A stretch of 64,000 nucleotides of DNA from Schmidtea polychroa (Eukaryota): the NCBI GenBank assembly GCA_044892525.1, contig CM097885.1:29576001-29640000 (forward strand), written 5' to 3'. The translations under genes were made by a program, and so were the position numbers. Shown here in pieces: positions 21,926 to 56,882 of the stretch; the stretch's first letter is position 1; each line of letters starts with the position of its first letter. The notes under the pieces are model-generated. The model worked only from the letters and a program-made list of their open reading frames with translations, was not told the origin of the DNA and ran no database searches.

Positions 21926-23355
21926 TCAATGACAACAGATCAAATTCATGATTTCATTGATTTCTTCTTTAGTGTTGATCTTTGGCTGTCTGTTTATTAT
22001 GAGAATTGCTTCTTTGATTCTGACATTTTTCTTTTGGATGTTTCCATTAGCTATGATTTCTATTGAAATATTTTTTCTTTCCTCTGTTGGCTGACACTGC
22101 CGGAGATGTCTGCCCAACGAGGATGTTCCACCAGGATCTAGATGTTCCTTAACTCTTTGGTGCAATGTCCTGAGGGTACTTCCAATGTAGATTTCATTGC
22201 ATACATTGCACGTGATGCAATAGACGATGTTTTTTCTAAAGCACATATCTTTCGGTGTCTGGCAGTTTTTCATTGTGCAATTGTTTTCTCTATTTATGTT
22301 GCCTGCCAGAGCCCTTCTCAATGTCCAAGATTTATGTGCTATCCGAATTGGAAGACCGGTACGTTTAAGTTCTTTCAGGATCTTGAAGTCGAGTATGTCA
22401 CTGATGAATGGGATATTCAGATAGAAATATTTCTGATTCTTTTGTGTTAATTCCCTAGATCTTCTTGGGGTAGAATTCATTTTTTCAATGTCCTCACCTT
22501 GGTATCCGTTTCGGTGTAGGATTTTATTGAAATTTGATTGCTCTTTAAAGTTTTCGTTTTTCTCCGTGCATCGATTGGCTATTCTTCGTTTCTCGTTTCT
22601 TATGACATGTACTTTCTGTAAGTATGGAAGAGCTGATCTTTGGTGCATAAATATTTCTTTGCGAGCTGGTTTTCTGTAGAACCCGTATGTTGGAGTATTT
22701 TCTTCTATTTTGATTCTCAAATCCAATAAATTGAGGGATCCATCTTCTTCCGGATATTCGATTTCGAACTTAATATCTTGATGAGCCGCATTGAATGAAT
22801 GAAATATTTCCTCCGCTTCTTTTCTGTTTTTGGTCAAGATGAAGATATCATCTACATATCTTGCATAGAAACCGATGGGTTGTATGGTCCTCAGTGTCTG
22901 TCGTTCGAGGTTATCCATAAAGATGATTGCTAGCAGTCCTGATATGCTAGAACCCATAGGCAGACCTTTAACTTGTTTATAGATATTTTGTTCAAAGGTA
23001 AAATAGGTGTTCTCGAGGATAACAGTAAGTAGTTTGGTGATATTCTCGATATTCATTTCCTTTATTAACAAGTTGCTTTCTCTTAATTTCTTTTCTAAAC
23101 ATTGAATAGCCTCTGTTGGTTCGATAGATGTGTATAGTGATACGACATCAAGACTAAATGGGTATTGGAATTCTCTATGACAAGTCATGTTATTATTTAG
23201 TCTTGTCATGAGGCAGTCGCTGCTTTGAAGATGGTGTGGTATCGTGTCCAATAAAGGTTTCAAGATCTTTGCAAGGAGCCAACTTGTTTTAGTTGTTGGT
23301 CCATTTTTGTTGGACACTATAGGTCTAATTTTGTTACCAGGACCCTCTTTGTGAG

Positions 23356-24189: not shown

Positions 24190-25740
24190 ATGAATAAAAC
24201 TAATATTTACATGATTTTACCCAGCAATAGCTCTCCTTTAATCCATCCAAATAACAATGCTAGTAAATTTATTGTCGAACTTCAAAATCAAATCTATTTA
24301 AATGGTAGTTGGGAAGTGTCCTTGTTGGATTTTACATTTGTATACAATCTCTTTCCGTTTTACAGCAAATCCAAGATTGAATATACCAAAATGGAATCAG
24401 TATCAAAAATTGTTAAAGTGAAGATGATTTAAGACAGCTATGAAATGGTCAATCAAACAAATACAAATGTGATAATATATGTTGAAGAAAGATTGCTATT
24501 TGTACTTTCAATGTTTGAAGCGACCATTTCAATTTTTATTTGAAACTTTAACTGATGCAAAACGTCTAGGATTTACTCTAGTGCGTAAATTTGATCTTGA
24601 TGCTCGTCTCAAAACTGATGCTCTTCCCAAAACTGATGCTCTATTCAAATTTCAACTCTTGTATAACAAAGCAGTTGAGCATGTCTATACATTTTAAGAT
24701 TATTTAACAAAACATTGTGCAAATATTTTCGCTGTTGTTGAATTAGACAAATATTTTAAATTTCAAATGAATCCGACTGTTGACCAAATGAAATTTGACT
24801 CTTATTTGGTAAAAACATTAGGATTATCTAAAGAAACGTATATACAAAACTTAAAAGTTAACGAAGGAACATCGAAACCAAAAATAATTAAACTTCATCA
24901 ACAAATGTTCATTTAAAATATTGTTGAATCCATATTTGTTGGTGATGTTAGTGTTCCTCTATTGAAATCAGTATAGATTGGAAAACATGAGCAGGATGAA
25001 GTCGTTCAAATATCAATTGAAAATCCTATGTATTTATCTGTTTCAACATCATGCATAAACAATATAGAAATTAATATACGTGATGATAGCAGAAAAGTGA
25101 TAAAATTTCTAAAAGATTCAAAAACTCATTTGACTTTACATTTTCGCAAAGTGAATGACTTATCGTGATATTGTATCGCTTTATAGTGGTAGTCAAAATG
25201 GTGGAGAATTACCATATTTTATTTGTAAACAATATGGATCCGGATGGTTCCAAAAAATTGGAAGGTTTTAACTTCCCATACTTAAAAAGATTAGTTCTTT
25301 TGGCATGAAAACAGCAAAGGATGTGATAATGAAAGATCAAAAAATTCTTCCAACATTAAAAAGACATGCAATAGATGAAATTGGGAAATTGATACCTGGT
25401 GTAGCAAAAAGTTCCAAACCAAATGAAACTAAAAAACCTTCACCACCACCACCAATACAAAAACTAACACCACAACAAATTCTGAATAAACGACGAAGAT
25501 ATAGTATAAACAAAAGATTGAAAGGTCGTGGAACAATATTTCAAAATAATAAAGATCCGGCAAAACTGAATTGTGTATTTTTGATCGTCCATCTCCACAA
25601 GTAGTAATTGAAAATGGAATATTTGAAGATGTATTTCCCATGAATTCAATTACTGATTCGAGAAATGATGTTGAATTTTTTATTAATGGTTCACAGACTG
25701 AATATTTAGATTTGAATGATATTCTATTATCAATTCAATA
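24190..25740 (+). pseudogene. Decayed Polinton fragment: minor capsid, core protein and start of major capsid
   Basis: YMILPSNSS..NNASKF and NIEINIRDD..LTLHFRK parallel 33487-34491. SQNGGELPYF..QYGSGW parallels 34484. KTELCIFDRPSPQVVIENG..VEFFINGSQTEYLDLND resembles the Polinton MCP N-terminus. Multiple stops. Confidence 0.85.
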
Positions 25741-26221: not shown

Positions 26222-26344
26222 ATCATTAGTAGATGGATTGGGCACCGCTGGCACAGGGCACCGCTAGCACAGTACCCCCCCCCCTCCCCCCCCCCCGTCG
26301 GTAAGATTTTCAAAAATATTCTAAGTCTAAAAGTACATTTTTTT

Positions 26345-27260
26345 TTCAAGGTCAAATTTAAACAAAGACATATGACTCATCAAGGTCATTGAAACAAAGA
26401 CCATGAGTCATCCTATGACTCATAAAATTTTTCAAGGTCATTTAAACAAAGACCATGACTCATCCGATGACTCATCAAGGACATTTTCAAGGTCATATGA
26501 CTCATACTATGACTCATCAAGGTCAAAAAAATTTCCTCAAGGTCATTTAAACAAAGACCATGACTCATCCGATGACTCATCAAGGACATTTTCAAGGTCA
26601 TATGACTCATACTATGACTCATCAAGGTCAAAAAAAATTTCTCAAGGTCATTTAAACAAAGACCATGACTCATCAAGGTCATTTTCAAGGTCATATGACT
26701 CATCCTATGACTCATATGCCCTTGAAAAATTTTTTCAAGGTCATATGACTCATCCTATGACTCATCAAGGTCATTGAAACAAAGACCATGACTCATAGTA
26801 TGACTCATATGACCCTGAAAAATTTTTTTCAAGGTCATATGACTCATAGTATGACTCATCAGGGGCATTTTCAAGGTCGTATGACTCATAGCATGACTCA
26901 TTTGACCTTGAAAAATTTTTTTCAAGGTCATATGACTCATAATATGACTCATCAAGGTCATTTTCAAGGTCATATGACTCATAATATGACTCATCAAGGT
27001 CATTTTCAAGGTCATATGACTCATAGTATGACTCATTTGACCTTGAAAAAATTTTTCAAGGTCATATGTCTCATCCTATGACTCATCAAGGTCATTCTCA
27101 AGGTCATATGACTCATCCGATGACTCATCAAAATTTTCAAGGTCATTTTCAAGGTCATCTGAGTCATCCTATGACTCATCAAGGTCATTTTCAAGGTCAC
27201 ATGACTCATCCAAGGTTATTCCCAAGGTCATATGAGTCATCGCGATGACTCATCAAGGTC
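26345..27260. promoter_or_regulatory. Subterminal array of ATGACTCAT, TCAAGGTCA and AAACAAAG motifs (left arm)
   Basis: Dozens of shuffled copies read directly. They match AP-1, NR5A/ERR extended half-site and Fox/Sox-like consensus. Function is inferred. Confidence 0.6.
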
Positions 27261-27417
27261 ATATTATTATTTTTAAAAAATATTATTATTTTTATTATTA
27301 TTTTTAAAAATATTATTATTTTATTTTTAATTTTTTCAAAGTTCCCGCCAACGAAAATTAATAATCGATAGCTCATTTTAAAGCTCAATCCAAGACCTTT
27401 CGAATGAGCCATATATC

Positions 27418-27466
<49 letters not shown>

Positions 27467-27482
27467 CATTATTATTATTATA

Positions 27483-27543
<61 letters not shown>
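27418..27543. repeat. (ATT)n tract in left arm (longer mirror at 40358-40522)
   Basis: Direct reading. Confidence 0.95.
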
Positions 27544-27676
27544 GTATTAATCTATATACACCGAGTCTATATACTTTGAGTCTATCTGACAAAATATTTT
27601 GTCCCCCTATGGGTAATGCTCACAAGGGTACTGGTCACGCTCAACAAATCAACAAATCAACAAAACATACATTTAT

Positions 27677-28177
27677 TTAAACAATAAAATAATGTAAAAT
27701 TAACAAAGGTAAACTAAATATTGATGTACTACTATTCGCAGCAATATTGTTAGAAATTGGTAACGTTGAATTGATTTTCAGATATTCTATTGATCCTTTG
27801 ATTGTTTGAATTTCTCTTAATAATAATTCAATCTTTTTTAACAAATAATCATGCTTCTTATCAATAATCTTCATATTCTTTTTATTTTCAGTAATAGAGT
27901 TATTGAAAACCTCAATATGATCAATCAATTTAATTTTTATATTTTGTATATATTCAAATGTTAGTTCATAACTGTTTTCTAAATTCTCCAATCTTTGAGA
28001 TATTCTTTTTCCTGGATGCTTTGACCATTTTGGTTTATCGAGAATATATAAAATATCCATCAACTTGGCTGTATTCGGACAAACACATATTGATTTATTA
28101 AAAGACTCCACCGTTATTGTTGTATTGTGTGAGCACACACTCGTTATAATAATTAGCAATATGAATAGAGTTTTCAT
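27677..28177 (-). CDS. 166-aa putative secreted / GPI-anchored coiled-coil glycoprotein
   Basis: Signal peptide MKTLFILLIIITSVCS, several NxS/T sequons, heptad-rich middle, small-residue linker and hydrophobic C-terminus with no cytoplasmic tail. Confidence 0.7.
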   Translation of the reverse strand: MKTLFILLIIITSVCSHNTTITVESFNKSICVCPNTAKLMDILYILDKPKWSKHPGKRISQRLENLENSYELTFEYIQNIKIKLIDHIEVFNNSITENKKNMKIIDKKHDYLLKKIELLLREIQTIKGSIEYLKINSTLPISNNIAANSSTSIFSLPLLILHYFIV

Positions 28178-28282
28178 GGTGTATCAAATCAAAACCTTTC
28201 TTTTACATTTATAGTCTATCAACCAATCAAAATCATCCGGTATTAGTATAAATAAAACATCATATTTTAAATTATTGTAAAA

Positions 28283-28803
28283 ATGTCTCAATTTATGGAA
28301 AATCTTTTAAGAGAACTCGTCAACAGGAATATTATGGAAAGCCTATGTTTCCTGGTCGATCGGACCGAAAAGATTATAGAAGGTAATCACATTGATTATG
28401 ACGATGTGATCAATTCTGATTGTCTCGAAACCAAAAAATTCTATTTTAATAGAATTTTTAACTGTCTATGCGACGATCAGATGAAGTGGACCCGAATACT
28501 AGTAGGGTTCGCTTATATGAAAATAATAATCCAAAGAAGTCTATGGGACTCAGAGCACTATTATCAGTGGTCTCAAGAAGTAATACTTTTATAATTTATA
28601 TTTTATTAATATTTATTTTCTAGATAATCAAGTCAAAGTTTCAACCATGGATTGAAGCCAATGGCGGATGGGGAGTACTCAATCAACTCGCCAGAAATGC
28701 AAAAGAAATAGACGATCAGAAAAGAAAATTTAAAAACTATGTAAAACTTGCAACAGGTGTTGCTATTTTGTATATTTTAACCAGATTTTTAAATAAAAAT
28801 TAA
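28283..28803 (+). CDS. Bcl-2 family protein, 158 aa, two exons (28283-28579, 28624-28803)
   Basis: BH1-like KWTRILVGFAY. 44-nt GT..AG intron. Exon 2 gives BH2 WIEANGGW and a C-terminal hydrophobic anchor LATGVAILYILTRF. Confidence 0.85.
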
Positions 28804-28862
28804 TATAGTTATTTTTGTTTGATTTTTAAATAAATTTACAAACACTAATTAACTAAGATTTA

Positions 28863-29240
28863 TTAATTAACACATTCGCAGTCGTCATCTCCAAATTTCA
28901 TTATATTTTCAACGACATGATCAATACAATCATTCGTAATATTATCTTTAGATTCATCTTTAGGTTCCTCTATAGGTTCCTCTATAGGTTCATAGATTTC
29001 CTCTTGAGTTTCTTCCTCATCAATTTCTTGAGTTTCTTCCTCATCATCAAATCCTGTATCTTGACTCTCAACTAACCAGCCGATATTTAAGGCATTTGTA
29101 ATAGATAATATATCCTCCATTTTCACACCAGATATTTCTGCTAACTTTTCCAACAAAAAGTTGATTAAAAATTCTAAATAATAAATAATTCGGTAATTAA
29201 TTAATTAATCATGTTAACCTTTTTCTACAGTCATTTTCAT
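28863..29240 (-). CDS. Acidic ~110-aa protein, two exons (intron 29174-29218)
   Basis: ATG exon MKMTVEK joined in frame by a 45-nt GT..AG intron. EEETQEI and EEP repeats. Confidence 0.6.
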
Positions 29241-29369
29241 CACTTTAAAACTAAATTATAAGTTTGTTTATAGATTTTCTTTGTTAAATTTGCATGTCAT
29301 TTGCATTTATGTTGCAATTAATAAAGAGAAAAAAAACAAATCTGACTAATACATTTATTAAATATAACA

Positions 29370-29780
29370 TTAAAATATTTGTGAAAGTCTAGCAGACATA
29401 ATTTTCCAAATAGGAGAATATACATCATTATTATCAACTTTATATCCCTGGATTGCAATTGTTATATACCAATTTTCATTTTCTTTGAAAGCGATTTCAT
29501 CAAAGGAATCATAAAATCTTGCATATTTATTGTTGAACCATGCATGTTGATTACACGATAGATTCGAATCTATCCGTTTAAAAACATCATCAATAGTTTT
29601 GACATCAATCATTGAAAGCGTGCCGGATAAGAATTCAAATTTAGTTGGAATTAGCTTGACTGGTGCAACCAATTTCATATTGATTTCTTCTTTCAAAAAA
29701 TACATTTTGTAGTTGTGGAACATTTGAACTGGTTGTACCATTTCTTTAGGTTTTTCGGTGCTTGAAATTTTCTTGGTCAT
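29370..29780 (-). CDS. 136-aa unknown protein, possibly OB-fold ssDNA-binding
   Basis: Clean ATG ORF with CCAAT and TATA upstream. The beta-rich C-terminus WYITIAIQGY..SPIWKIMSARL is only suggestive. Confidence 0.6.
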   Translation of the reverse strand: MTKKISSTEKPKEMVQPVQMFHNYKMYFLKEEINMKLVAPVKLIPTKFEFLSGTLSMIDVKTIDDVFKRIDSNLSCNQHAWFNNKYARFYDSFDEIAFKENENWYITIAIQGYKVDNNDVYSPIWKIMSARLSQIF

Positions 29781-30140
29781 CGTGAATAATGAATAAATTT
29801 AAATGTTACAGGGTTTTTATACCTTTGACTCATGCCTATCAACCAATCAGATTATAGCATGTCTTTGTTTAAATTGCATTCAAAATGCATTGATGTTGCA
29901 TTGTCACATGTTCTATTTACAGATTTATTATTAATGTTTAAATTATTACATGTTTTGATATATGTACAGATTTATTATTAATATGTTTCATTATTATTAA
30001 TGTTTTTACTATTATTACTATTCATATTTCTATTACTATTATTATTATTATTACTATTATTATTATTACTATTATTATTTCAAATATAAAACACAATAAA
30101 ACACAATAAAAAAGATAAAACACAATAAAAAATACATTTA

Positions 30141-30554
30141 TTAATAACCCAAATCTACAATCTTGGAGTAGTGAAACCTTCTCAGAGTTTTCACTAACTC
30201 CCATTCGACATATCGCCGATATCGATCGGCGCAACATGAGCATCCGATGATGCACTGGTACTCTGGCTCCATTTGTTTGATGGTTCTGTTAATCTTTATA
30301 TCCCACAGAAACTGGTGAAATACATCCATGATTCGAATTTGAGTCGCATAGAATATCAGATCTGGAATGATCTCAGGTTCGCGATCCTTGATAATTTCAA
30401 TAATTTGAGGATAATAATATTTTATCCTTTTTATCATAACTTCTAAATATTTCTCTAAAATAATAAATAGTAAATAATGTGAAAAAAAAATTTTAAATTT
30501 ACCGGAATCGTCGATATCTTTCATGAGGGTTGCAGAGCTTGGTAATTTGTACAT
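30141..30554 (-). CDS. Unknown protein with CxxxCxCC motif, probable 48-nt intron (30455-30502)
   Basis: ATG at 30554. In-frame T-rich GT..AG segment. QCIIGCSCCADR near the C-terminus. Confidence 0.6.
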   Translation of the reverse strand: MYKLPSSATLMKDIDDSGKFKIFFSHYLLFIILEKYLEVMIKRIKYYYPQIIEIIKDREPEIIPDLIFYATQIRIMDVFHQFLWDIKINRTIKQMEPEYQCIIGCSCCADRYRRYVEWELVKTLRRFHYSKIVDLGY

Positions 30555-30627
30555 AGTGTTGAAAAAATGAATTCTAAACAAAAACCGTTTGTTTAAATCA
30601 ATCAATAACCAATTAGAAATTAACCAA

Positions 30628-31065
30628 TTAGAAATCGACCAATGAAATTATCTCATTTCGAACATTGTCAACAAATTCTCTATACTCCAAATTTCTCAAC
30701 CCCAACATGACAACCTTTCCACTAGGAAACACGTTGACACATATAGGGTTATATTTTAATAGTCTTAGTGCCGGAAACAATTCCGGTTCAAACATACAAT
30801 CACATTTTTTCGACATGTTATATAGATTGATACTATGTCCCATATCCATAGTAACGGTAATTGATTGGATTTTAATATTATTTATTCGATATTGTAATTT
30901 ATTAATATCCAAAGGTTTCTTACATCCCATGATTCTGCATTTACCAGTCTTGAAAAATATTATCGGATATTTCCCACTTCTATCGATAATTTGCTGGGGT
31001 TTCCCTGGTGGGAACCTCATATTCGATACATCAAAATTTCCTCGATAATTTATATTTGCTAACAT
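30628..31065 (-). CDS. TATA-box-binding-protein-like, 145 aa
   Basis: Two TBP repeats: IIFFKTGKCRIMG and KIQSITVTMD..INL..FEPELFPAL..VNVFPSGKVVMLG (TBP has LIFxSGKxVxTG and YEPELFPGL). Confidence 0.85.
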   Translation of the reverse strand: MLANINYRGNFDVSNMRFPPGKPQQIIDRSGKYPIIFFKTGKCRIMGCKKPLDINKLQYRINNIKIQSITVTMDMGHSINLYNMSKKCDCMFEPELFPALRLLKYNPICVNVFPSGKVVMLGLRNLEYREFVDNVRNEIISLVDF

Positions 31066-31164
31066 TATTAAATCATTTATGAAAATTAGTCTTTATATAC
31101 AAATTGAGCACGAGTTCATTAAATCATCGAATATAAACAAATACACATTTATAAAATATTTGAA

Positions 31165-31791
31165 ATGGAATTAAGAAATGATGCTGTATACCAAATCGTT
31201 GGTCCGAGTGGTAGTGGAAAAACATTATTTGTTTGTAAATTACTAAAATCCAATTTATTCAAATCAAAATTCAACAGGATTTATTGGCATAGGGGTGCTG
31301 ATGAAGAACATGGATTAACTCAATCAAGTTTCTGTAAATTAAAAAACATGAAAATAGTAAAGGGATTCGATAAAAACTGGTCCAGCCGATTAAAGAAAGG
31401 CGATGTCATTATTATCGATGATTTGTATCAAGAAGCTAATAAAGAAAAAGATTTTAATAATTTATTTACAAAGATTAGCAGACATGTCGGTGTAACAGTT
31501 ATTTTCATAACTCAAAATCTATTTCATCAAGGTGGGGCACATCGAACACGTAATTTAAATGTACAATATTTAGTCATTTTCAAGAATCCTAGAGATGCAA
31601 CAGTGATTGATTTTCTTGCACGTCAAGCATACCCTAACAATCGTAATTTTCTTATCAGTGCATTTCAAGATGCTACAAAAATACCTCATGGATATATATT
31701 TCTTGATTTCACACAACAATGTCCCGATGATTTACGTGTAAAAACAGATATTTTCAACCCAAAAGGTGCCATGGTTTATAAACAAAGTTGA
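31165..31791 (+). CDS. Polinton packaging ATPase (A32/FtsK-like)
   Basis: Walker A GPSGSGKT, Walker B IIIDDL, SRH..VIFITQNLF, FKNPRD. Confidence 0.95.
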   Translation: MELRNDAVYQIVGPSGSGKTLFVCKLLKSNLFKSKFNRIYWHRGADEEHGLTQSSFCKLKNMKIVKGFDKNWSSRLKKGDVIIIDDLYQEANKEKDFNNLFTKISRHVGVTVIFITQNLFHQGGAHRTRNLNVQYLVIFKNPRDATVIDFLARQAYPNNRNFLISAFQDATKIPHGYIFLDFTQQCPDDLRVKTDIFNPKGAMVYKQS

Positions 31792-31809
31792 AAACCTCTA
31801 TGAATAATA

Positions 31810-32343
31810 ATGTTTCTAAAAGCAAGGGTGAAAAATATTAGGAAATTAAGAAAAGGTATTAGAAAGACTATTAAAGTTCCAAAGGTTCCACCAACAACTA
31901 GTTATACACCATCTAAAAAACTTGTAACTAAAAATTTCTCTGCAATGAATCTTATTTCGAAAAATCCTAAACCTAAACGTAAAACCCGTAAAACCCGTAA
32001 AACCGGTAAAAAAGTAGTTAAAAATCATCGCAGTTTTCCATTTTTTAATGCATTGTTAAAGGCTCCGAGTATGAAAAGAATGAATATATTGCAATCATTC
32101 CCAAATTTTGTTGTCGATGATTTACTCAATATTATACTTAAAGTAGTCAAAGGCAAAATTAAAATCAGTAAATCAAAAAAGCATTTATTGAGCAAACATA
32201 GGAAACCTTTATTATCTTTAGTAAATAATAAAAATCGTAAGCAAATGAGGAAAATTATATATAAACAACAAGGTGGATTTATTGGTGCCTTGATACCTCT
32301 GGCATTATCATTATTAGGTGGAGTTGTAGGAAATCAATCATAA
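31810..32343 (+). CDS. Basic virion core-like protein with QGG cleavage site and amphipathic tail
   Basis: Lys/Arg-rich. Ends KQQGGFIGALIPLALSLLGG, an adenain-type xxGG site followed by a hydrophobic helix. Confidence 0.75.
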   Translation: MFLKARVKNIRKLRKGIRKTIKVPKVPPTTSYTPSKKLVTKNFSAMNLISKNPKPKRKTRKTRKTGKKVVKNHRSFPFFNALLKAPSMKRMNILQSFPNFVVDDLLNIILKVVKGKIKISKSKKHLLSKHRKPLLSLVNNKNRKQMRKIIYKQQGGFIGALIPLALSLLGGVVGNQS

Positions 32344-32346
32344 ACA

Positions 32347-32574
32347 ATGGGTGCTAATCCTTCATTGCCCGACATTAAATTTAATTTTAAATCTTCTTGT
32401 TGTAATGGAGAAGATTTGGACGAACCCAGAAGACGAAGCCGGTTTCGGTGGAGTGGCAAAATTAAACAAAAGAGTTCCGAATTCGAAAAAAGAAACCCAG
32501 AAGTGGTTATCAGATCAGCTTGCGTACAGTTTGAACAAACCAATGCGGAAAAGATTTCCAACAAGAGCGTATAA
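32347..32574 (+). CDS. 75-aa putative myristoylated protein overlapping the integrase 5' end
   Basis: ATG 3 nt after the previous stop. MGANPS fits MGxxxS. CC pair at residues 18-19. Confidence 0.5.
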   Translation: MGANPSLPDIKFNFKSSCCNGEDLDEPRRRSRFRWSGKIKQKSSEFEKRNPEVVIRSACVQFEQTNAEKISNKSV

Positions 32575-32792
32575 AACATTTGGTATTGACGATTTATGGC
32601 AAATGGATTTGATGGAGATGATACCATATTCGAAAATTAACAATGGGAATAAATATATTTTAACATGTATTAATGTATACAGCAGGTTTACACGAGCAAT
32701 ACCAGTCAAGGCAAAATCTGCAGAAGAAATGTCCAAGGCAATTAATATTTTATTTAAAGATGGACATCCTAATAATTTGCAAACAGATTTAG

Positions 32793-32860
<68 letters not shown>

Positions 32861-33490
32861 TTAGGTAAAGAATTCTACAATAGCAAAGTTAAGCAAATCC
32901 TCGATAAACTGAAAATAAATCATTACTCGGTACATTCTCAATACAAAGCTGCCCATGTTGAAAGATTTAATCGAACATTGAGAGATAGATTAAAGAAATT
33001 GTTCGTGCATCAAGGTAATAAAAAATGGGTAAATGCTTTACCGAAAATAATAACAAGTTATAATCATTCATCACATCGAGGACTGAATGGATTGAGACCG
33101 GTTGATATTACATCAAAAACACCATTATCTAAAAAATCTGTAAAAATTGCAAAACCTAAATATAAAGTCGGTGACCATGTTAGAATTAGTAAAATTAGTG
33201 CATCACCATTTATTAAAAATTTTGATACAAATTGGAGTGATGAAGTCTTTGTAATTTCAAAAATAAATACTAAACAGAATCCTGTAATGTATGTCATCAA
33301 AGACAATGATAATAATATTGTACAGGGGAAATATAATGAGCAGGAATTACAAGTCATTCCTCCCCCAAAAGTATTTAGAATTCAAAAAATATTGAAAACT
33401 AAAAAGGTCGGTAAGGATAAACAATACTATATCAAATGGCACGGTTATCAAAACCCGTCATGGATATCGTCAAAAGACCTAGTAAAATGA
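32405..33490 (+). CDS. Retroviral-type (rve) integrase with C-terminal chromodomain; intron 32793-32864
   Basis: WQMDLMEM, spliced LQTDLGKEF, VERFNRTL, YKVGDHVRIS, IQKILK..YYIKWHGY..SW. The poly-Ile stretch is a GT-(ATT)n-AG intron. Confidence 0.93.
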
Positions 33491-34491
33491 ATTTTTATAT
33501 TATTTTACCTAGCAATAGCTGTCCACTTATTCATCCAGATAATAAAGCCAGCAAATTCAGGGTCAATCTTCAAAATCCGATATATTTGGATAATAGCTGG
33601 GAAGTTGCTCTGTTGGATTTTACATTTGTATACCAAGCCTTTCCATTTTATAGTAAGGCTAAAATTGGATACAAAAAGAATGAGTGGCAGGATAGATTAT
33701 TGTCTATGATCATTGATAATGCAGATGATGAAGTTCGGTTGTCTAACTCAACTGATCCAGCTGTGAAAATGTATATTAACCATTCATATATAGTAGTTGA
33801 ATGTAAACATTATCCTTTTACTGTAAAATTTGATAGTTTGGAAATGGCAAAACGATTGGAATTAAAAACCCAAAGTCATAAAGTTCTTTCCGATAAATTC
33901 ACTATGCTACGACCGGGATATTCCAAAACTGTACAGCGATTTGAACCAATTTTATTTACAGTTTCATATCCGGGTATAACGTCTGGTACATTTGAGTTCA
34001 AAGATAATTTATACATTTCGAAATTGGATGAATTACAGACATATTTAAAACAAAGTGGTTTATTTAAATCATTGGAAATATCAGACAGATTCAAATTCAG
34101 TTTGAATCCCGAATTTACTGAAATTACTTTTGATGCAAATCTAATAAAAACATTAGGATTATCAAAAGCAACATATGCTCAAGATGATCAAGGTACCCTA
34201 GCTCCGAAAATAATTAAACTTCACCAACAAATGTTCATCTATAGTAATATTGTTGATCCTGTAATTGTTGGCGATTCTTTGGTCCCACTCCTGAAATCTG
34301 TTTGGATTGAAAAATATGAACATGATGAAGTAGTCAATATAAATATCGATAATCCCATGTATTTACCTGTGTCAACCTCATGTATAAACAATATAGAAAT
34401 AAATATACGTGATGATTCTGGTAAATTAATCGCATTTCCAAAAGATTCAAAAACTCATTTAACATTACATTTTCGTAAAGTAGATGGCTAA
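33487..34491 (+). CDS. Polinton minor capsid (penton) protein, single copy
   Basis: MNFYIILPSNS..NKASKF..WEVAL and FIYSNIV..VGDSLVPLL..PMYLPV..IEINIRDDSG..LTLHFRK. Confidence 0.9.
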   Translation: MNFYIILPSNSCPLIHPDNKASKFRVNLQNPIYLDNSWEVALLDFTFVYQAFPFYSKAKIGYKKNEWQDRLLSMIIDNADDEVRLSNSTDPAVKMYINHSYIVVECKHYPFTVKFDSLEMAKRLELKTQSHKVLSDKFTMLRPGYSKTVQRFEPILFTVSYPGITSGTFEFKDNLYISKLDELQTYLKQSGLFKSLEISDRFKFSLNPEFTEITFDANLIKTLGLSKATYAQDDQGTLAPKIIKLHQQMFIYSNIVDPVIVGDSLVPLLKSVWIEKYEHDEVVNINIDNPMYLPVSTSCINNIEINIRDDSGKLIAFPKDSKTHLTLHFRKVDG

Positions 34492-34700
34492 TTCGGATAT
34501 TATAAGTATGTATAGTGGTAGCCAATCTGGCGGTGAATTACCATATTTTATTGGGAAACAGTACGGATCAGGATGGTTGAGAACAATTGGTAGATTTGCA
34601 CTTCCTATTCTTAAACGTATTGGTAGTTTTGGTATGAAAACTGCTAAAGATGTTATTATGAATGAACAGAAAATATTACCATCTCTAAAATCAAATGCTT
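34484..34700 (+). pseudogene. Core protein gene truncated by the fold-back junction
   Basis: QSGG and QYGSG cleavage-like sites and amphipathic WLRTIGRFALPILKRIG. The sequence turns into its own reverse complement at 34698. A longer homolog lies at 25155-25550. Confidence 0.85.
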
Positions 34701-34831
34701 TAGCAGTTTTCATACCAAAACTACCAATACGTTTAAGAATAGGAAGTGCAAATCTACCAATTGTTCTCAACCATCCTGATCCGTACTGTTTCCCAATAAA
34801 ATATGGTAATTCACCGCCAGATTGGCTACCA
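34516..34831. repeat. Central 134-bp hairpin with 48-nt loop
   Basis: 34516-34649 is the reverse complement of 34698-34831. Confidence 0.95.
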
Positions 34832-35029
34832 ACTTGTTATTATTTTCGGTAAAGCATTTACCCATTTTTTATTACCTTGATGCACGAACAATTTCTTTAA
34901 TCTATCTCTCAATGTTCGATTAAATCTTTCAACATGGGCAGCTTTGTATTGAGAATGTACCGAGTAATGATTTATTTTCAGTTTATCGAGGATTTGCTTA
35001 ACTTTGCTATTGTAGAATTCTTTACCTAA

Positions 35030-35109
<80 letters not shown>

Positions 35110-35497
35110 CTAAATCTGTTTGCAAATTATTAGGATGTCCATCTTTAAATAAAATATTAATTGCCTTGGACATTTCTTCTGCAGATTTTGCCTTGACTGG
35201 TATTGCTCGTGTAAACCTGCTGTATACATTAATACATGTTAAAATATATTTATTCCCATTGTTAATTTTCGAATATGGTATCATCTCCATCAAATCCATT
35301 TGCCATAAATCGTCAATACCAAATGTTTTATACGCTCTTGTTGGAAATCTTTTCCGCATTGGTTTGTTCAAACTGTACGCAAGCTGATCTGATAACCACT
35401 TCTGGGTTTCTTTTTTCGAATTCGGAACTCTTTTGTTTAATTTTGCCACTCCACCGAAACCGGCTTCGTCTTCTGGGTTCGTCCAAATCTTCTCCAT
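34831..35497 (-). pseudogene. Mirror integrase copy, 3'-truncated; intron 35026-35109
   Basis: Matches the left copy up to LPKIITS. Intron is 84 nt versus 72 nt. Confidence 0.9.
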
Positions 35498-35555
35498 TAC
35501 AACAAGAAGATTTAAAATTAAATTTAATGTCGGGCAATGAAGGATTAGCACCCAT
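35328..35555 (-). CDS. Mirror copy, putative myristoylated protein
   Basis: Identical translation to 32347-32574. Confidence 0.5.
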   Translation of the reverse strand: MGANPSLPDIKFNFKSSCCNGEDLDEPRRRSRFRWSGKIKQKSSEFEKRNPEVVIRSACVQFEQTNAEKISNKSV

Positions 35556-35558
35556 TGT

Positions 35559-36092
35559 TTATGATTGATTTCCTACAACTCCACCTAATAATGATAATGC
35601 CAGAGGTATCAAGGCACCAATAAATCCACCTTGTTGTTTATATATAATTTTCCTCATTTGCTTACGATTTTTATTATTTACTAAAGATAATAAAGGTTTC
35701 CTATGTTTGCTCAATAAATGCTTTTTTGATTTACTGATTTTAATTTTGCCTTTGACTACTTTAAGTATAATATTGAGTAAATCATCGACAACAAAATTTG
35801 GGAATGATTGCAATATATTCATTCTTTTCATACTCGGAGCCTTTAACAATGCATTAAAAAATGGAAAACTGCGATGATTTTTAACTACTTTTTTACCGGT
35901 TTTACGGGTTTTACGGGTTTTACGTTTAGGTTTAGGATTTTTCGAAATAAGATTCATTGCAGAGAAATTTTTAGTTACAAGTTTTTTAGATGGTGTATAA
36001 CTAGTTGTTGGTGGAACCTTTGGAACTTTAATAGTCTTTCTAATACCTTTTCTTAATTTCCTAATATTTTTCACCCTTGCTTTTAGAAACAT
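35559..36092 (-). CDS. Mirror copy, basic core-like protein
   Basis: Identical translation to 31810-32343. Confidence 0.75.
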   Translation of the reverse strand: MFLKARVKNIRKLRKGIRKTIKVPKVPPTTSYTPSKKLVTKNFSAMNLISKNPKPKRKTRKTRKTGKKVVKNHRSFPFFNALLKAPSMKRMNILQSFPNFVVDDLLNIILKVVKGKIKISKSKKHLLSKHRKPLLSLVNNKNRKQMRKIIYKQQGGFIGALIPLALSLLGGVVGNQS

Positions 36093-36110
36093 TATTATTC
36101 ATAGAGGTTT

Positions 36111-36737
36111 TCAACTTTGTTTATAAACCATGGCACCTTTTGGGTTGAAAATATCTGTTTTTACACGTAAATCATCGGGACATTGTTGTGTGAAATCAAG
36201 AAATATATATCCATGAGGTATTTTTGTAGCATCTTGAAATGCACTGATAAGAAAATTACGATTGTTAGGGTATGCTTGACGTGCAAGAAAATCAATCACT
36301 GTTGCATCTCTAGGATTCTTGAAAATGACTAAATATTGTACATTTAAATTACGTGTTCGATGTGCCCCACCTTGATGAAATAGATTTTGAGTTATGAAAA
36401 TAACTGTTACACCGACATGTCTGCTAATCTTTGTAAATAAATTATTAAAATCTTTTTCTTTATTAGCTTCTTGATACAAATCATCGATAATAATGACATC
36501 GCCTTTCTTTAATCGGCTGGACCAGTTTTTATCGAATCCCTTTACTATTTTCATGTTTTTTAATTTACAGAAACTTGATTGAGTTAATCCATGTTCTTCA
36601 TCAGCACCCCTATGCCAATAAATCCTGTTGAATTTTGATTTGAATAAATTGGATTTTAGTAATTTACAAACAAATAATGTTTTTCCACTACCACTCGGAC
36701 CAACGATTTGGTATACAGCATCATTTCTTAATTCCAT
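36111..36737 (-). CDS. Mirror copy, packaging ATPase
   Basis: Identical translation to 31165-31791. Confidence 0.95.
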   Translation of the reverse strand: MELRNDAVYQIVGPSGSGKTLFVCKLLKSNLFKSKFNRIYWHRGADEEHGLTQSSFCKLKNMKIVKGFDKNWSSRLKKGDVIIIDDLYQEANKEKDFNNLFTKISRHVGVTVIFITQNLFHQGGAHRTRNLNVQYLVIFKNPRDATVIDFLARQAYPNNRNFLISAFQDATKIPHGYIFLDFTQQCPDDLRVKTDIFNPKGAMVYKQS

Positions 36738-36836
36738 TTCAAATATTTTATAAATGTGTATTTGTTTATATTCGATGATTTAATGAACTCGTGCTCAATT
36801 TGTATATAAAGACTAATTTTCATAAATGATTTAATA

Positions 36837-37274
36837 ATGTTAGCAAATATAAATTATCGAGGAAATTTTGATGTATCGAATATGAGGTTCCCACCAGGGA
36901 AACCCCAGCAAATTATCGATAGAAGTGGGAAATATCCGATAATATTTTTCAAGACTGGTAAATGCAGAATCATGGGATGTAAGAAACCTTTGGATATTAA
37001 TAAATTACAATATCGAATAAATAATATTAAAATCCAATCAATTACCGTTACTATGGATATGGGACATAGTATCAATCTATATAACATGTCGAAAAAATGT
37101 GATTGTATGTTTGAACCGGAATTGTTTCCGGCACTAAGACTATTAAAATATAACCCTATATGTGTCAACGTGTTTCCTAGTGGAAAGGTTGTCATGTTGG
37201 GGTTGAGAAATTTGGAGTATAGAGAATTTGTTGACAATGTTCGAAATGAGATAATTTCATTGGTCGATTTCTAA
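36837..37274 (+). CDS. Mirror copy, TBP-like protein
   Basis: Identical translation to 30628-31065. Confidence 0.85.
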   Translation: MLANINYRGNFDVSNMRFPPGKPQQIIDRSGKYPIIFFKTGKCRIMGCKKPLDINKLQYRINNIKIQSITVTMDMGHSINLYNMSKKCDCMFEPELFPALRLLKYNPICVNVFPSGKVVMLGLRNLEYREFVDNVRNEIISLVDF

Positions 37275-37347
37275 TTGGTTAATTTCTAATTGGTTATTGA
37301 TTGATTTAAACAAACGGTTTTTGTTTAGAATTCATTTTTTCAACACT

Positions 37348-37761
37348 ATGTACAAATTACCAAGCTCTGCAACCCTCATGAAAGATATCGACGATTCCGG
37401 TAAATTTAAAATTTTTTTTTCACATTATTTACTATTTATTATTTTAGAGAAATATTTAGAAGTTATGATAAAAAGGATAAAATATTATTATCCTCAAATT
37501 ATTGAAATTATCAAGGATCGCGAACCTGAGATCATTCCAGATCTGATATTCTATGCGACTCAAATTCGAATCATGGATGTATTTCACCAGTTTCTGTGGG
37601 ATATAAAGATTAACAGAACCATCAAACAAATGGAGCCAGAGTACCAGTGCATCATCGGATGCTCATGTTGCGCCGATCGATATCGGCGATATGTCGAATG
37701 GGAGTTAGTGAAAACTCTGAGAAGGTTTCACTACTCCAAGATTGTAGATTTGGGTTATTAA
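37348..37761 (+). CDS. Mirror copy, CxxxCxCC protein (intron 37400-37447)
   Basis: Identical translation to the left copy. Confidence 0.6.
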   Translation: MYKLPSSATLMKDIDDSGKFKIFFSHYLLFIILEKYLEVMIKRIKYYYPQIIEIIKDREPEIIPDLIFYATQIRIMDVFHQFLWDIKINRTIKQMEPEYQCIIGCSCCADRYRRYVEWELVKTLRRFHYSKIVDLGY

Positions 37762-38121
37762 TAAATGTATTTTTTATTGTGTTTTATCTTTTTTATTGTG
37801 TTTTATTGTGTTTTATATTTGAAATAATAATAGTAATAATAATAATAGTAATAATAATAATAATAGTAATAGAAATATGAATAGTAATAATAGTAAAAAC
37901 ATTAATAATAATGAAACATATTAATAATAAATCTGTACATATATCAAAACATGTAATAATTTAAACATTAATAATAAATCTGTAAATAGAACATGTGACA
38001 ATGCAACATCAATGCATTTTGAATGCAATTTAAACAAAGACATGCTATAATCTGATTGGTTGATAGGCATGAGTCAAAGGTATAAAAACCCTGTAACATT
38101 TAAATTTATTCATTATTCACG

Positions 38122-38532
38122 ATGACCAAGAAAATTTCAAGCACCGAAAAACCTAAAGAAATGGTACAACCAGTTCAAATGTTCCACAACTACAAAATGT
38201 ATTTTTTGAAAGAAGAAATCAATATGAAATTGGTTGCACCAGTCAAGCTAATTCCAACTAAATTTGAATTCTTATCCGGCACGCTTTCAATGATTGATGT
38301 CAAAACTATTGATGATGTTTTTAAACGGATAGATTCGAATCTATCGTGTAATCAACATGCATGGTTCAACAATAAATATGCAAGATTTTATGATTCCTTT
38401 GATGAAATCGCTTTCAAAGAAAATGAAAATTGGTATATAACAATTGCAATCCAGGGATATAAAGTTGATAATAATGATGTATATTCTCCTATTTGGAAAA
38501 TTATGTCTGCTAGACTTTCACAAATATTTTAA
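38122..38532 (+). CDS. Mirror copy, 136-aa unknown protein
   Basis: Identical translation to 29370-29780. Confidence 0.6.
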   Translation: MTKKISSTEKPKEMVQPVQMFHNYKMYFLKEEINMKLVAPVKLIPTKFEFLSGTLSMIDVKTIDDVFKRIDSNLSCNQHAWFNNKYARFYDSFDEIAFKENENWYITIAIQGYKVDNNDVYSPIWKIMSARLSQIF

Positions 38533-38660
38533 TGTTATATTTAATAAATGTATTAGTCAGATTTGTTTTTTTCTCTTTATTAATTGCAACATAAATGCAA
38601 ATGACATGCAAATTTAACAAAGAAAATCTATAAACAAACTTATAATTTAGTTTTAAAGTG

Positions 38661-39038
38661 ATGAAAATGACTGTAGAAAAAGGTTAACATGATTAATTAA
38701 TTAATTACCGAATTATTTATTATTTAGAATTTTTAATCAACTTTTTGTTGGAAAAGTTAGCAGAAATATCTGGTGTGAAAATGGAGGATATATTATCTAT
38801 TACAAATGCCTTAAATATCGGCTGGTTAGTTGAGAGTCAAGATACAGGATTTGATGATGAGGAAGAAACTCAAGAAATTGATGAGGAAGAAACTCAAGAG
38901 GAAATCTATGAACCTATAGAGGAACCTATAGAGGAACCTAAAGATGAATCTAAAGATAATATTACGAATGATTGTATTGATCATGTCGTTGAAAATATAA
39001 TGAAATTTGGAGATGACGACTGCGAATGTGTTAATTAA
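38661..39038 (+). CDS. Mirror copy, acidic protein (intron 38683-38727)
   Basis: Identical translation to the left copy. Confidence 0.6.
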
Positions 39039-39097
39039 TAAATCTTAGTTAATTAGTGTTTGTAAATTTATTTAAAAATCAAACAAAAATAACTATA

Positions 39098-39618
39098 TTA
39101 ATTTTTATTTAAAAATCTGGTTAAAATATACAAAATAGCAACACCTGTTGCAAGTTTTACATAGTTTTTAAATTTTCTTTTCTGATCGTCTATTTCTTTT
39201 GCATTTCTGGCGAGTTGATTGAGTACTCCCCATCCGCCATTGGCTTCAATCCATGGTTGAAACTTTGACTTGATTATCTAGAAAATAAATATTAATAAAA
39301 TATAAATTATAAAAGTATTACTTCTTGAGACCACTGATAATAGTGCTCTGAGTCCCATAGACTTCTTTGGATTATTATTTTCATATAAGCGAACCCTACT
39401 AGTATTCGGGTCCACTTCATCTGATCGTCGCATAGACAGTTAAAAATTCTATTAAAATAGAATTTTTTGGTTTCGAGACAATCAGAATTGATCACATCGT
39501 CATAATCAATGTGATTACCTTCTATAATCTTTTCGGTCTGATCGACCAGGAAACATAGGCTTTCCATAATATTCCTGTTGACGAGTTCTCTTAAAAGATT
39601 TTCCATAAATTGAGACAT
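39098..39618 (-). CDS. Mirror copy, Bcl-2 family protein (exons 39618-39322, 39277-39098)
   Basis: Same motifs. One substitution, DRTEK versus DQTEK. Confidence 0.85.
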
Positions 39619-39723
39619 TTTTACAATAATTTAAAATATGATGTTTTATTTATACTAATACCGGATGATTTTGATTGGTTGATAGACTATAAATGTAAAA
39701 GAAAGGTTTTGATTTGATACACC

Positions 39724-40224
39724 ATGAAAACTCTATTCATATTGCTAATTATTATAACGAGTGTGTGCTCACACAATACAACAATAACGGTGGAGTCTTT
39801 TAATAAATCAATATGTGTTTGTCCGAATACAGCCAAGTTGATGGATATTTTATATATTCTCGATAAACCAAAATGGTCAAAGCATCCAGGAAAAAGAATA
39901 TCTCAAAGATTGGAGAATTTAGAAAACAGTTATGAACTAACATTTGAATATATACAAAATATAAAAATTAAATTGATTGATCATATTGAGGTTTTCAATA
40001 ACTCTATTACTGAAAATAAAAAGAATATGAAGATTATTGATAAGAAGCATGATTATTTGTTAAAAAAGATTGAATTATTATTAAGAGAAATTCAAACAAT
40101 CAAAGGATCAATAGAATATCTGAAAATCAATTCAACGTTACCAATTTCTAACAATATTGCTGCGAATAGTAGTACATCAATATTTAGTTTACCTTTGTTA
40201 ATTTTACATTATTTTATTGTTTAA
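39724..40224 (+). CDS. Mirror copy, secreted / GPI-anchored protein
   Basis: Identical translation to 27677-28177. Confidence 0.7.
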   Translation: MKTLFILLIIITSVCSHNTTITVESFNKSICVCPNTAKLMDILYILDKPKWSKHPGKRISQRLENLENSYELTFEYIQNIKIKLIDHIEVFNNSITENKKNMKIIDKKHDYLLKKIELLLREIQTIKGSIEYLKINSTLPISNNIAANSSTSIFSLPLLILHYFIV

Positions 40225-40357
40225 ATAAATGTATGTTTTGTTGATTTGTTGATTTGTTGAGCGTGACCAGTACCCTTGTGAGCATTACCCATAGGGGGAC
40301 AAAATATTTTGTCGGATAGACTCAAAGTATATAGACTCGGTGTATATAGATTAATAC

Positions 40358-40522
<165 letters not shown>

Positions 40523-40677
40523 GATATATGGCTCATTCGAAAGGTCTTGGATTGAGCTTTAAAATGAGCTATCGATTATTAATTTTCGTTGGCGGGAACT
40601 TTGAAAAAATTAAAAATAAAATAATAATATTTTTAAAAATAATAATAAAAATAATAATATTTTTTAAAAATAATAAT

Positions 40678-41332
40678 ATGACCTTGATGAGTCATCGCGA
40701 TGACTCATATGACCTTGGGAATGACCTTGGATGAGTCATGTGACCTTGAAAATGACCTTGATGAGTCATAGGATGACTCAGATGACCCTGAAAATGACCT
40801 TGAAAATTTTGATGAGTCATCGGATGAGTCATATGACCTTGAGAATGACCTTGATGAGACATAGGATGAGTCATATGACCTTGAAAAAAATTTTCAAGGT
40901 CAAATGAGTCATACTGTGAGTCATATGACCTTGAAAATGACCTTGATGAGTCATATTATGAGTCATATGACCTTGAAAATGACCTTGATGAGTCATATTA
41001 TGAGTCATATGACCTCGAAAAAATTTTTCAGGGCCAAATGAGTCATACTATGAGTCATACGACCTTGAAAATGACCTTGATGAGTCATACTATGAGTCAT
41101 GGTCTTTGTTTCAATGGCCTTGATGAGTCATAGGATGAGTCATATGACCTTGAAAAATTTTTTTCAAGGGCATATGAGTCATATGACCTTGAAAATGACC
41201 TTGATGAGTCATCGGATGAGTCATGGTCTTTGTTTAAATGCCCTTGAAAAATTTTATGAGTCATAGGATGACTCATGGTCTTTGTTTCAATGACCTTGAT
41301 GAGTCATATGTCTTTGTTTAAATTTGACCTTG
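40678..41332. promoter_or_regulatory. Subterminal motif array (right arm, shorter)
   Basis: Reverse-complement array ATGAGTCAT / TGACCTTGA with fewer units than the left arm. Confidence 0.6.
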
Positions 41333-42259
41333 AAAAAAAAATGTACTTTTAGACTTAGAATATTTTTGAAAATCTTACCGACGGGGGGGGGGTACTGTGC
41401 TAGCGGTGCCCTGTGCCAGCGGTGCCCAATCCATCTACTATCATTATTTCCCCAATCATTTTACTCATTTAACAATTATTTTGGTTTTATTATTTGGTTA
41501 TCCTCAACAACCCTATATTGTAAAACTAATATTACTAAATGAATTTTAAAGTTATAATATTGCATATTAATGTTAAAGGTCAAATATCATATAAGGAATT
41601 AATTTATTCGTGCGTTACGTAATCTAATTCAATTACTTGGTGATTACGGAGGCTCTACAATTAAAATAATAGTACAGTTGTTATTCAAATATAAATTTTA
41701 AAATGACAACGCCAAAAATGTACTTACATCGATGACTCTAGGAGATTGAATAAAAAAACAAGAGATTCTCTACTAAATGCTAGGAAACTCTTGGATATGA
41801 AGACTAATAGATATTATGGCAAATGCACTAAAGAAACTTAAAATGAATACAATAAATTGATATTATATCCCCATACATATTGTTAATTCACACTTCCCAT
41901 CGACACTAACATGTTTAACACTTACAATTTCATTTTCTGAAGTGTTTTCAATAATGGAATGTAATGTATGACACCCAGTTTCATAGAATAACTTTACTTC
42001 TATTATCAAGAAAGTCAATAATTTGATATTATATAAAAACGTAACCTGAGTGTTGACACAGCACAGTAAAAATTCATTTTAACTTTTAATAGATGTAACA
42101 ATTACACAAAACATCTGGTTATTCTGCAAATTCCTTTCTGGACAATATCGTGAGACATGATTCGCTCAGCATCGATTCAATATTATCGGTTTATCTTTAT
42201 TATTTTGCTTACATTTTTTTCCAGGCTTAAATTTCGCGAGTTTTGGTGTTTCGGTGTCG

Positions 42260-43472: not shown

Positions 43473-43555
43473 AAAAAAAACTAACCTGAGATGTGATTTG
43501 AACCGCTATCTATTTGAACCACTGTGCCAGTCTAGCCCACTGCGCTACTAGACTT
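43473..43555 (-). ncRNA. tRNA-like Pol III unit, copy 1
   Basis: Minus strand: A box TAGCGCAGTGG, B-box-like GGTTCAAAT twice, then a T8 terminator. Confidence 0.5.
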
Positions 43556-43704: not shown

Positions 43705-43786
43705 AAAAAAAACTAACCTCAGATGTGATTTGAACCACTATCCATTTGAACCACTGTGCCAGTCTAGCCCACTGCGCTATCAGGTT
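43705..43786 (-). ncRNA. tRNA-like Pol III unit, copy 2
   Basis: AACCTGA-TAGCGCAGTGG..GGTTCAAATC..TGAGGTT-AG-T8. Acceptor-like stem. 232-bp repeat period with copy 1. Confidence 0.5.
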
Positions 43787-44080: not shown

Positions 44081-44476
44081 ATGAATAATATAAATCTCAA
44101 AATTCAAGAAAAAAATAAATTAAATCTTGATTATAATAAAGAATTTACTCATGAAATTAAAAAAAATGATATTTTAAAAATCTCGCCAACTTCAGGATCT
44201 ATTGCAAACTTAAATCGTAGGGGTGATATAGTTTTTCAATCTCTTCAAACATCAAACCCAATAGATATTTGTAATGCCAAATTATATTATAAAATTGAAT
44301 TAGAAATTGAAGCAAACAAAGATATAACCCTAGAAAATAATTTCTTTCCAAATTTATTCTCCAACATGAGATTAAAACTAGGATCATCAGAAATTGAAAC
44401 TGTTTTACATCCAGGAGTATATTCTACAATGTTAAATTTTATTTTGACTGGTTGTGATTATAAAAACGAATATGGT
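44081..44476 (+). pseudogene. Polinton 2 major capsid protein, 5' part (interrupted)
   Basis: LNRRGDIVF, NNFFPNLFS..LKLGSSEIE..HPG..STML. Joins 60539 in frame once the insertion and one TSD are removed. Confidence 0.85.
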
Positions 44477-44614
44477 AGTAGGTAGATAGTGGCCTACGGG
44501 AACAATTACCCCCCCCCGGGGGGGGGGGGGGGGGGTTTGTTCCCAAATTTTTATTACGCAATTGTTCCCAACTCATTTTTTTGCTTTCAGGGATTTTTGG
44601 TCCAAATTTTTTTT

Positions 44615-45690: not shown

Positions 45691-45699
45691 TAAATTTTT

Positions 45700-46400
45700 T
45701 AAAATTAAAGTAAATTATGGTTCTAAAAATTGAATTACAGTAAATTATGGACTAAGATTTTTAAATTACAGTAAATTATGGTCCAAATTTTTCAATTAAA
45801 GTAAATTATGGTTCAAATTTTTCAAATAAGGTAATTATGGTCCTAAAAAATTAAATTACAGTAAATTATGGTTCTAAAAAATTATATTACAGTAAATTAT
45901 GGTCTAAAAAAAATTGAATTACAGTAAATTATGGACTAAGATTTTTAAATTACAGTAAATTATGGTCCAAATTTTTGAATTAAAGTAAATTATGGGCTTA
46001 GATTTTTCAATTAAAGTAATGAATGGGCTCAAATAACTAAATTAAGGTTCAAAATTTTAAATTAAAGTAAATAATGGTCCTAAAAAATTAAATTAAAGTT
46101 AATTATGGTCCTAAAAAATTAAATTAAGGTTCATATTTTCGAATTAAAGTAATTAATATGCTCAGATTTTTCAATTAAAGTAAATAATGGCTCAAATTTT
46201 TCAAATTACAGTAAATAATGGTTCTAAAAAATTAAATTAAAGTAAATTATGGTTCTAAAAATTAAATTAAAGTAAATTATGGTTCTAAAAAAATTAAATT
46301 ACAGTAAATTATGGTTCTAAAAAATTAAATTAAAGTAAATTATGGTCCAAATTTAAAAATTAAGTAATCAATGGTAAAAAAATTAAATTAAAGTAATAAT
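45700..46400. repeat. ~30-bp AATTA(C/A)AGTAAATTATGG repeats; mirror 58615-59310
   Basis: Direct reading. Confidence 0.9.

Positions 46401-48130: not shown

Positions 48131-48190
<60 letters not shown>

Positions 48191-56822: not shown

Positions 56823-56882
<60 letters not shown>

Follow-up and report, generated by a model that had tools for sequence, protein, structure and literature searches.

Organisation of the locus

Two large palindromic elements, here called A and B, lie in the window analysed, a stretch of 64,000 nucleotides from Schmidtea polychroa. Both start and end as AGTAG...CTACT, and each is bordered by a 6-bp target duplication, ATCATT for A (26222-26227 and 41440-41445) and TATGGT for B (44471-44476 and 60533-60538). 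Target duplications of 6 bp and AG/AGT-type ends are features of Polintons (PMC8097293, PMC10748475), and on both counts an earlier, sequence-only reading of this DNA was right to treat the two palindromes as Polinton-type insertions. Assembly artefacts (fold-back chimeras) were rejected for A and B: each element closes with a direct 6-bp duplication, and its arms are not identical. The main features are as follows.

26228-41439, no strand: element A, a palindromic (fold-back) Polinton derivative of 15.2 kb
26340-27262, forward strand: sub-terminal repeat array of A, with 36 TGA(C/G)TCA and 29 TCAAGGTCA sites (mirror copy 40678-41340)
27418-27549, forward strand: (TTA)n microsatellite directly outside the shared motif in A (mirror copy 40352-40522)
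27677-28177, reverse strand: cargo ORF of 166 aa, converging on the motif
30628-31065, reverse strand: TBP-like ORF of A, 145 aa (Pfam PF00352, E 2e-15; other arm 36837-37274, forward strand)
44477-60532, no strand: element B, a gene-less palindrome of 16.1 kb

Element A represents the left half of a Polinton folded back on itself, and it has a 6-bp duplication of its own. Its arms (6.8 kb) carry ORFs for an A32-like packaging ATPase, an integrase, the TBP-like protein and cargo, in an order that matches contigs L009 and L017 up to the break point. Past the break these related contigs run into a 400-aa ORF and then a long ORF on the reverse strand, with a type B polymerase domain in the case of L017. 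A itself has neither a polymerase nor a major capsid ORF and, by its gene set, is not an autonomous Polinton, having just the ATPase-like and integrase genes of those required. A second hairpin of 316 bp (34516-34831) occupies its centre.

The TBP-like ORF stands head-to-head with the ATPase gene. It has homologues in 77 of 83 candidates (38-97% identical), often beside ATPase and integrase genes; neither it nor the ATPase has relatives in viral contigs. Homologues of the 166-aa ORF, by comparison, number only 2 among 109 candidates (94-95% identical), and an Atlas search gave no usable match to it. The stop codon of this ORF is overlapped by an AATAAA signal (27672-27677), ~25 bp from the inner edge of the motif. 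TATA boxes are found at -33 to -41 in the promoters of A genes, and the TATAAAC ahead of the ATPase and of the next ORF has the same TATAWAC form as the head of the motif. The sub-terminal array consists of TGA(C/G)TCA and TCAAGGTCA repeats, which we take to be AP-1-type and NR5A/ERR-type sites, respectively; the corresponding counts are 0 and 0 in the B arm and 4 and 0 in window positions 1-21000. This terminal array is likely to be a host-factor enhancer.

Other observations were made in and around A. A 103-aa cargo ORF (28283-28594, forward strand) has a stretch that by eye recalls the Bcl-2 BH1 motif, with no Pfam match. The integrase ORF contains in-frame (ATT)n runs of 22 and 26 units (32794-32860 and 35030-35108), perhaps within a small intron. 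Directly left of A is a decayed Polinton segment (24200-25740, forward strand) with 75% identity to the region 34145-34698 of A, so that the locus is a nest of Polintons. Further left, a Penelope-like ORF (21926-23209, reverse strand) combines reverse transcriptase and GIY-YIG domains.

Element B has arms of 7.57 kb that are 99.7% identical, separated by a spacer of 0.92 kb. No ORF over 94 codons was found in the arm, in agreement with its earlier description as a non-coding palindrome. B is inserted in the capsid-gene region of a third Polinton. To the left of the capsid ORF of the latter, a 232-bp tandem duplication holds two tRNA-like units (43490-43545 and 43722-43785, reverse strand) with stretches resembling A and B boxes by eye; ARAGORN finds none there. 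The integrase ORF of the third Polinton (61465-62871, forward strand) has an N-terminal phospholipase-A2-like domain (PF08398).

A cassette common to both palindromes

A cassette of ~80 bp is the only clear homology between element A and element B. The six copies are listed below.

27568-27646, forward strand: A left arm; TATATAC head and two 15-bp GGGTA units; faces inward, 1340 bp from the element end
40255-40333, reverse strand: A right arm; one substitution relative to the left copy; faces inward, 1106 bp from the end
48590-48726, forward strand: B1; head and six 15-bp units, palindrome lost; faces inward, 4113 bp from the end
51337-51451, reverse strand: B2; 80-bp A-like copy (51372-51451) and two more units; faces outward, towards B1, 6974 bp from the end
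53563-53677, forward strand: mirror of B2 in the right arm of B
56287-56423, reverse strand: mirror of B1 in the right arm of B

The arms of A and of B are inverted duplicates, and the six copies therefore represent only three independent loci. In BLASTN comparisons the A copy matches the inner B copy (B2) over 80 columns at 87.5% (A left arm) or 88.75% identity (A right arm), with E ~1e-22 to 1e-23, and the repeat-expanded B1 copy over 69 columns at 77-78%, with E ~1e-10. The next-best match between A and B is an AT-rich 30-mer (E 0.004). With up to 3 mismatches allowed, a 22-nt pattern of the head matches 6 times in the window (shuffle mean 0.01); an 11-nt core also has 6 matches (shuffle mean 0.70).

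Checked against the sequence, the cassette is present at all six coordinates given in the sequence-only reading, which had also called it the only obvious internal homology of the two elements; the weak, AT-rich runner-up upholds that statement. Two details of the reading need amendment. The 'variant' copies do have the internal repeats, but they are not a separate variant: they are the same cassette (B1), with six instead of two 15-bp units. The palindrome GACAAAATATTTTGTC that had been placed in the motif (27588-27603 in the A left copy) is intact in A alone; B2 has it with one mismatch, and B1 lacks it.

Structure of the cassette

Each copy consists of a ~35-bp head that opens with TATATAC, a C run, and a number of 15-bp units with a GGGTA core. 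There are two such units in A, six in B1 and two plus two in B2, where the second pair lies beyond the 80 bp originally quoted. The units keep a strict 15-bp register (44, 59, 74, 89, 104, 119), and in one contig from organism B a 44-bp skip inside B1 has removed three of them. A has in addition an extra 15-bp near-copy of the head with a second TATATAC (27553-27567, forward strand; mirror copy 40334-40348, reverse strand). TATATAC opens the motif as a TATA-like box at the 5' edge of all three loci; this 7-mer is frequent in the AT-rich window (33 occurrences), and the box alone thus means little.

Folding of the motif was no better than that of shuffled sequences, either as DNA (z -0.7 to +1.1) or as RNA (z -1.4 to +1.5). 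None of the 21 predicted pairs showed compensation, and Rfam gave no match to the motif. On the minus strand, A and B2 form two hairpins with z of just -1.1 and -1.4, which B1 lacks. With no significant fold, covariation or Rfam match, the motif was rejected as a structured RNA, a ribozyme, an H/ACA or C/D RNA, or a tRNA. A Helitron or Helentron 3' end is recognised by a CTRR end after a hairpin; such an end is absent here by eye, and this identity was likewise rejected. A scan of the motif for bacterial promoters, not an apt tool for this DNA, gave chance-level results. A variable number of phased units without structure would point to binding of a protein to double-stranded DNA.

Borders, flanks and position

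Homology between the loci starts exactly at TATATA in all three cases, and the borders are sharp. The flanks of the three loci gave no clear excess over shuffles in any of six comparisons (10-54 of 200-300 shuffles reached the score), and the motif looks more conserved than its surroundings. A colinear 24-mer upstream, a candidate for longer homology between A and B, failed the shuffle test. Sequence immediately inward of B1 shows homology (E 2e-19) to the array that B has outside it, so that B1 is embedded in native B DNA; ACCAAGTACT-type B-native repeats flank it on both sides.

The distance from the motif to the nearest element end is 1340 and 1106 bp in the two arms of A, ~4110 bp for B1 and ~6970 bp for B2, and both orientations occur. 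With offsets and orientations that differ between A, B1 and B2, the earlier expectation of a conserved motif position across elements did not hold. The ends of the elements themselves (first 1.1 kb of A, 2.2 kb of B), where a protein-primed origin and the integrase site are situated, have nothing in common beyond AGTAG, C runs and AT-rich 15-27-mers. In a 9-column scan, a GGGTA(C/A)T core was also seen near the ends of A and B, at a distance of 35-50 bp, a weak signal (ranks 28-29 and 37-38). Because the ends of A and B do not align, descent of B from A by a deletion that spared a signal is unlikely. An 88% island between elements with unrelated ends would be better explained by transfer.

Occurrence in public contigs and in related elements

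Public contigs of 4 of the 24 listed runs were aligned to positions 48200-51900 at 80% likeness and evaluated in 30 bins. Summed contig depth in these bins should not be read as copy number, and cross-mapping between B1 and B2 is possible. B is an extremely repetitive element, with 94,059 aligned contigs in run X1 that cover all 30 bins. The three motif bins rank 3, 1 and 2 of 30 in X1 and 2, 1 and 3 in X5, with depths 1.8-3.1 times the median of the remaining 27. In X14, from organism B, the two B2 bins reach 346,000 and 382,000, with 3 and 0 in neighbouring bins. Depth over the motif is also raised in X8, which is RNA by guess, so that its depth is no measure of expression.

Loose contig ends fall at the B2 borders in 5 of 24 listed cases, picked from 3414 (rough binomial p 0.001). 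One of these runs into (AAT)n, as in A, and an X14 loose end keeps TAATTCAAT, by eye with the same spacing as in the window. From contig evidence, the motif thus appears to persist where its flanks turn over, including in a second organism, and to occur in further contexts. Host DNA may account for these extra contexts.

A search of 80 related Polinton-type loci (291 kb) did not recover the motif (best BLASTN E 0.23, nothing in nhmmer at E<1). The loci are the best 80 of 136 encoding a TBP-like protein, 43 of them matching another A protein as well; many are short, and at least 5 cover the left-end place that matches the motif site. At this place, distant relatives have a TATATA-led unit of another kind along with AAGGGTAC-type repeats: a box C/D-like unit is present in L003, L021, L008 and L030, and two or three of the repeats in L003, L004 and L021; the 8-mer of this type has only 8 non-coding matches in the relative set, all in one family (shuffle mean 2). 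The unit of L003, L008 and L030 does not align with the motif: in 7 of 9 tests the result was at chance level and in the other 2 the match was to a different, coding spot. Sequence comparison indicates that the left-end unit of the relatives resembles the motif in place and layout only.

Patterns for the head of the motif had 0 matches in viral contigs and 0 in metagenome contigs, and a second-half pattern had 0 in viral contigs. Prokaryote matches to a 19-mer of the motif were dismissed as chance (20 against ~35 expected; longest BLASTN match 26 nt). The literature that was searched, outside Repbase and subscription papers, yielded no description of such a shared internal cassette in the text available.

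Possible function of the cassette

The sequence-only reading had proposed a packaging or replication signal retained by a satellite. In its general form, this would be a packaging (or auxiliary replication) signal recognised by Polinton proteins and kept or acquired by the gene-less element for encapsidation by a helper. The motif is indeed the only DNA common to a gene-bearing and a gene-less element, its short redundant repeats are reminiscent of adenovirus, which has seven redundant A repeats (PMC4189039), and B, at 16 kb, is within the Polinton size range of 13-25 kb (PMC10748475). The GGGTA(C/A)T core near the ends of both A and B fits weakly, and if unrelated families acquired the motif convergently, that would be in line with selection for a helper function. 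Closest to such a signal is the adenovirus packaging domain (A repeats, TTTGN8CG), likewise a short non-coding cis region of redundant repeats in a linear, protein-primed dsDNA replicon lineage (PMC4189039), and in A the motif also lies between the terminal region and the first gene. The 2-6 units of 15 bp are, however, unlike the A repeats in sequence, and the motif occurs in both orientations and twice per arm in B. Position argues against the proposal: in adenovirus the ITRs act as origins, and the packaging sequence no longer functions if shifted inward by over ~300 bp (PMC4189039), whereas the copies found here are internal, 1106-6974 bp from the ends, with one B copy facing outward. Nor is the motif at the very terminus, where a protein-primed origin common to helper and satellite would be expected. 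Since, in addition, the proposed palindrome is not conserved across loci, the ends of A and B do not align and the motif was not found in the 80 related loci, retention of a signal by a satellite is not borne out, and a packaging or replication role seems distinctly unlikely.

Sharp outer borders and unrelated flanks would also suit the end of a small, independent, TA-targeting cut-and-paste element (Tc1/mariner- or MITE-like) or a dispersed mini-repeat, as would the raised depth and the additional contexts. An insert of 2.86 kb (48590-51451) would then be bounded by B1 and B2, and a single end would be left in A. TA-targeting MITEs and Tc1/mariner elements have ends with sub-terminal repeats, and B1 and B2 are alike in this: the two point towards each other, share a perfect inverted match of 26 bp, and have TA runs on the outside and sub-terminal 15-bp repeats on the inside. 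None of the 15 joints listed (of 404, in contigs) skips B1..B2 as an empty site would, none of the 24 loose ends listed (of 3414) lies at the B1 border, and no pile-up of ends is among the entries listed. Depth outside B1..B2 continues at 0.4-0.9 of the inside level in X1 and X5, the native B repeats and the array homology extend across the B1 border, the B arm lacks any ORF over 94 codons, and each A arm has a lone copy with no facing partner end. We consider this origin rather unlikely, and it keeps even that standing because transposable elements have been reported as cargo in Polintons (10.1101/2025.02.07.637071). Capture of a piece of abundant host DNA, for example ribosomal spacer, spacer-promoter or the flank of a small-RNA gene, picked up separately by several elements and hitchhiking since, would also fit the sharp borders and unrelated carriers, and a host source that is conserved would explain the persistence in a second organism. 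No such source was found by Rfam or in the viral and metagenome collections; the depth excess is just 2-3 times the B background in X1 and X5, and unit number varies in register, a variation for which a passive fragment has no need. Host capture is thus the most doubtful of these explanations.

Our preferred reading, with a probability of roughly 0.45, is that the motif is a protein-binding, probably promoter-like cassette exchanged between Polinton families. It would be a compact and portable double-stranded binding module, with a fixed TATATAC head and 2-6 GGGTA units of 15 bp, that may have moved from family to family through recombination, or through template switching while elements replicate, possibly the same process that is behind the fold-backs, and may have been kept by selection. 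Its likeliest job, and here the argument is at its weakest, would be that of a transcription module: a core promoter of the TATA type together with repeated factor sites, for which the element's TBP-like protein may serve as a reader. The output might be short non-coding transcripts; alternatively, the cassette might be a boundary mark where the terminal enhancer-like array gives way to the first cargo gene. Several features give supporting hints for a transcriptional role: the TATATAC edge is like the TATAAAC at -33 of two structural A genes, A encodes a TBP-like protein, and in A the cassette has on one side an array of 65 transcription-factor-type sites and on the other the first gene's poly(A) signal. 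A non-autonomous zebrafish Polinton (Polinton-1N1_DR) has been reported to supply a transcription start (PMC9341505). Against a promoter, firing in A would be antisense into the 166-aa ORF, and B has no ORF to drive.

A more far-reaching version, which we regard as unlikely, is that, in this lineage, unrelated gene-less satellites and gene-bearing Polintons converged on a transferable cassette read by an element-encoded protein, with the TBP-like protein as the first candidate, and that this would license expression, entry into a replication factory or packaging. If true, no internal cis element of Polinton satellites would have been defined before this cassette, which would offer a direct way into the question of how giant palindromes without genes parasitise their helpers. 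To our knowledge, Polintons are known almost only from sequence. A cassette common to two families with unrelated ends, at 88% identity, and apparently persisting where its flanks are not kept, offers a concrete target for tests of binding and reporter activity; it also has a bearing on the recruitment of helper or host proteins by palindromic satellites that have no genes. Should it be only a mini-transposon end or a captured fragment, the motif would be an ordinary repeat.

Comparison with known Polintons

A and B resemble Polinton/Maverick elements in their AG/AGT-type ends, 6-bp target duplication and size of 15-16 kb, and A also in its ATPase and integrase genes and in a gene order conserved with complete-looking relatives. 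They differ in that A is without polymerase or major capsid genes and B is without genes altogether. Their arms of 6.8 kb (A) and 7.6 kb (B) compare with terminal inverted repeats of 46-1447 bp or 100-1500 bp in Polintons (PMC10748475, PMC8097293), and their ends read AGTAGA and AGTAGG, as against (AGT)2 or (AG)3 (PMC8097293). The features by which Polintons are defined are genes, terminal repeats and target duplications; internal cis elements are not among them (PMC10748475, PMC8097293), and the available text of three accounts (PMC10748475, PMC8097293, PMC9341505) describes no internal cassette common to families.

A small unit at the left end of distant relatives

The left-end unit of the distant TBP-bearing Polinton relatives is an observation in its own right. 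It is a 41-nt ATGATGA...CTGA stretch (L003:144-184, L008:109-149 and L030:147-187; the copy of L021, at the contig start, is incomplete) downstream of the first cargo gene. Absent from window positions 24001-64000 and without a match in Rfam, it folds as RNA with z of -2.6, -3.5 and -4.2. The unit is closed by a stem of 7-12 bp, the sequence of which differs between families, and has an inner hairpin; from these features it looks like an element-borne box C/D (K-turn) small RNA.
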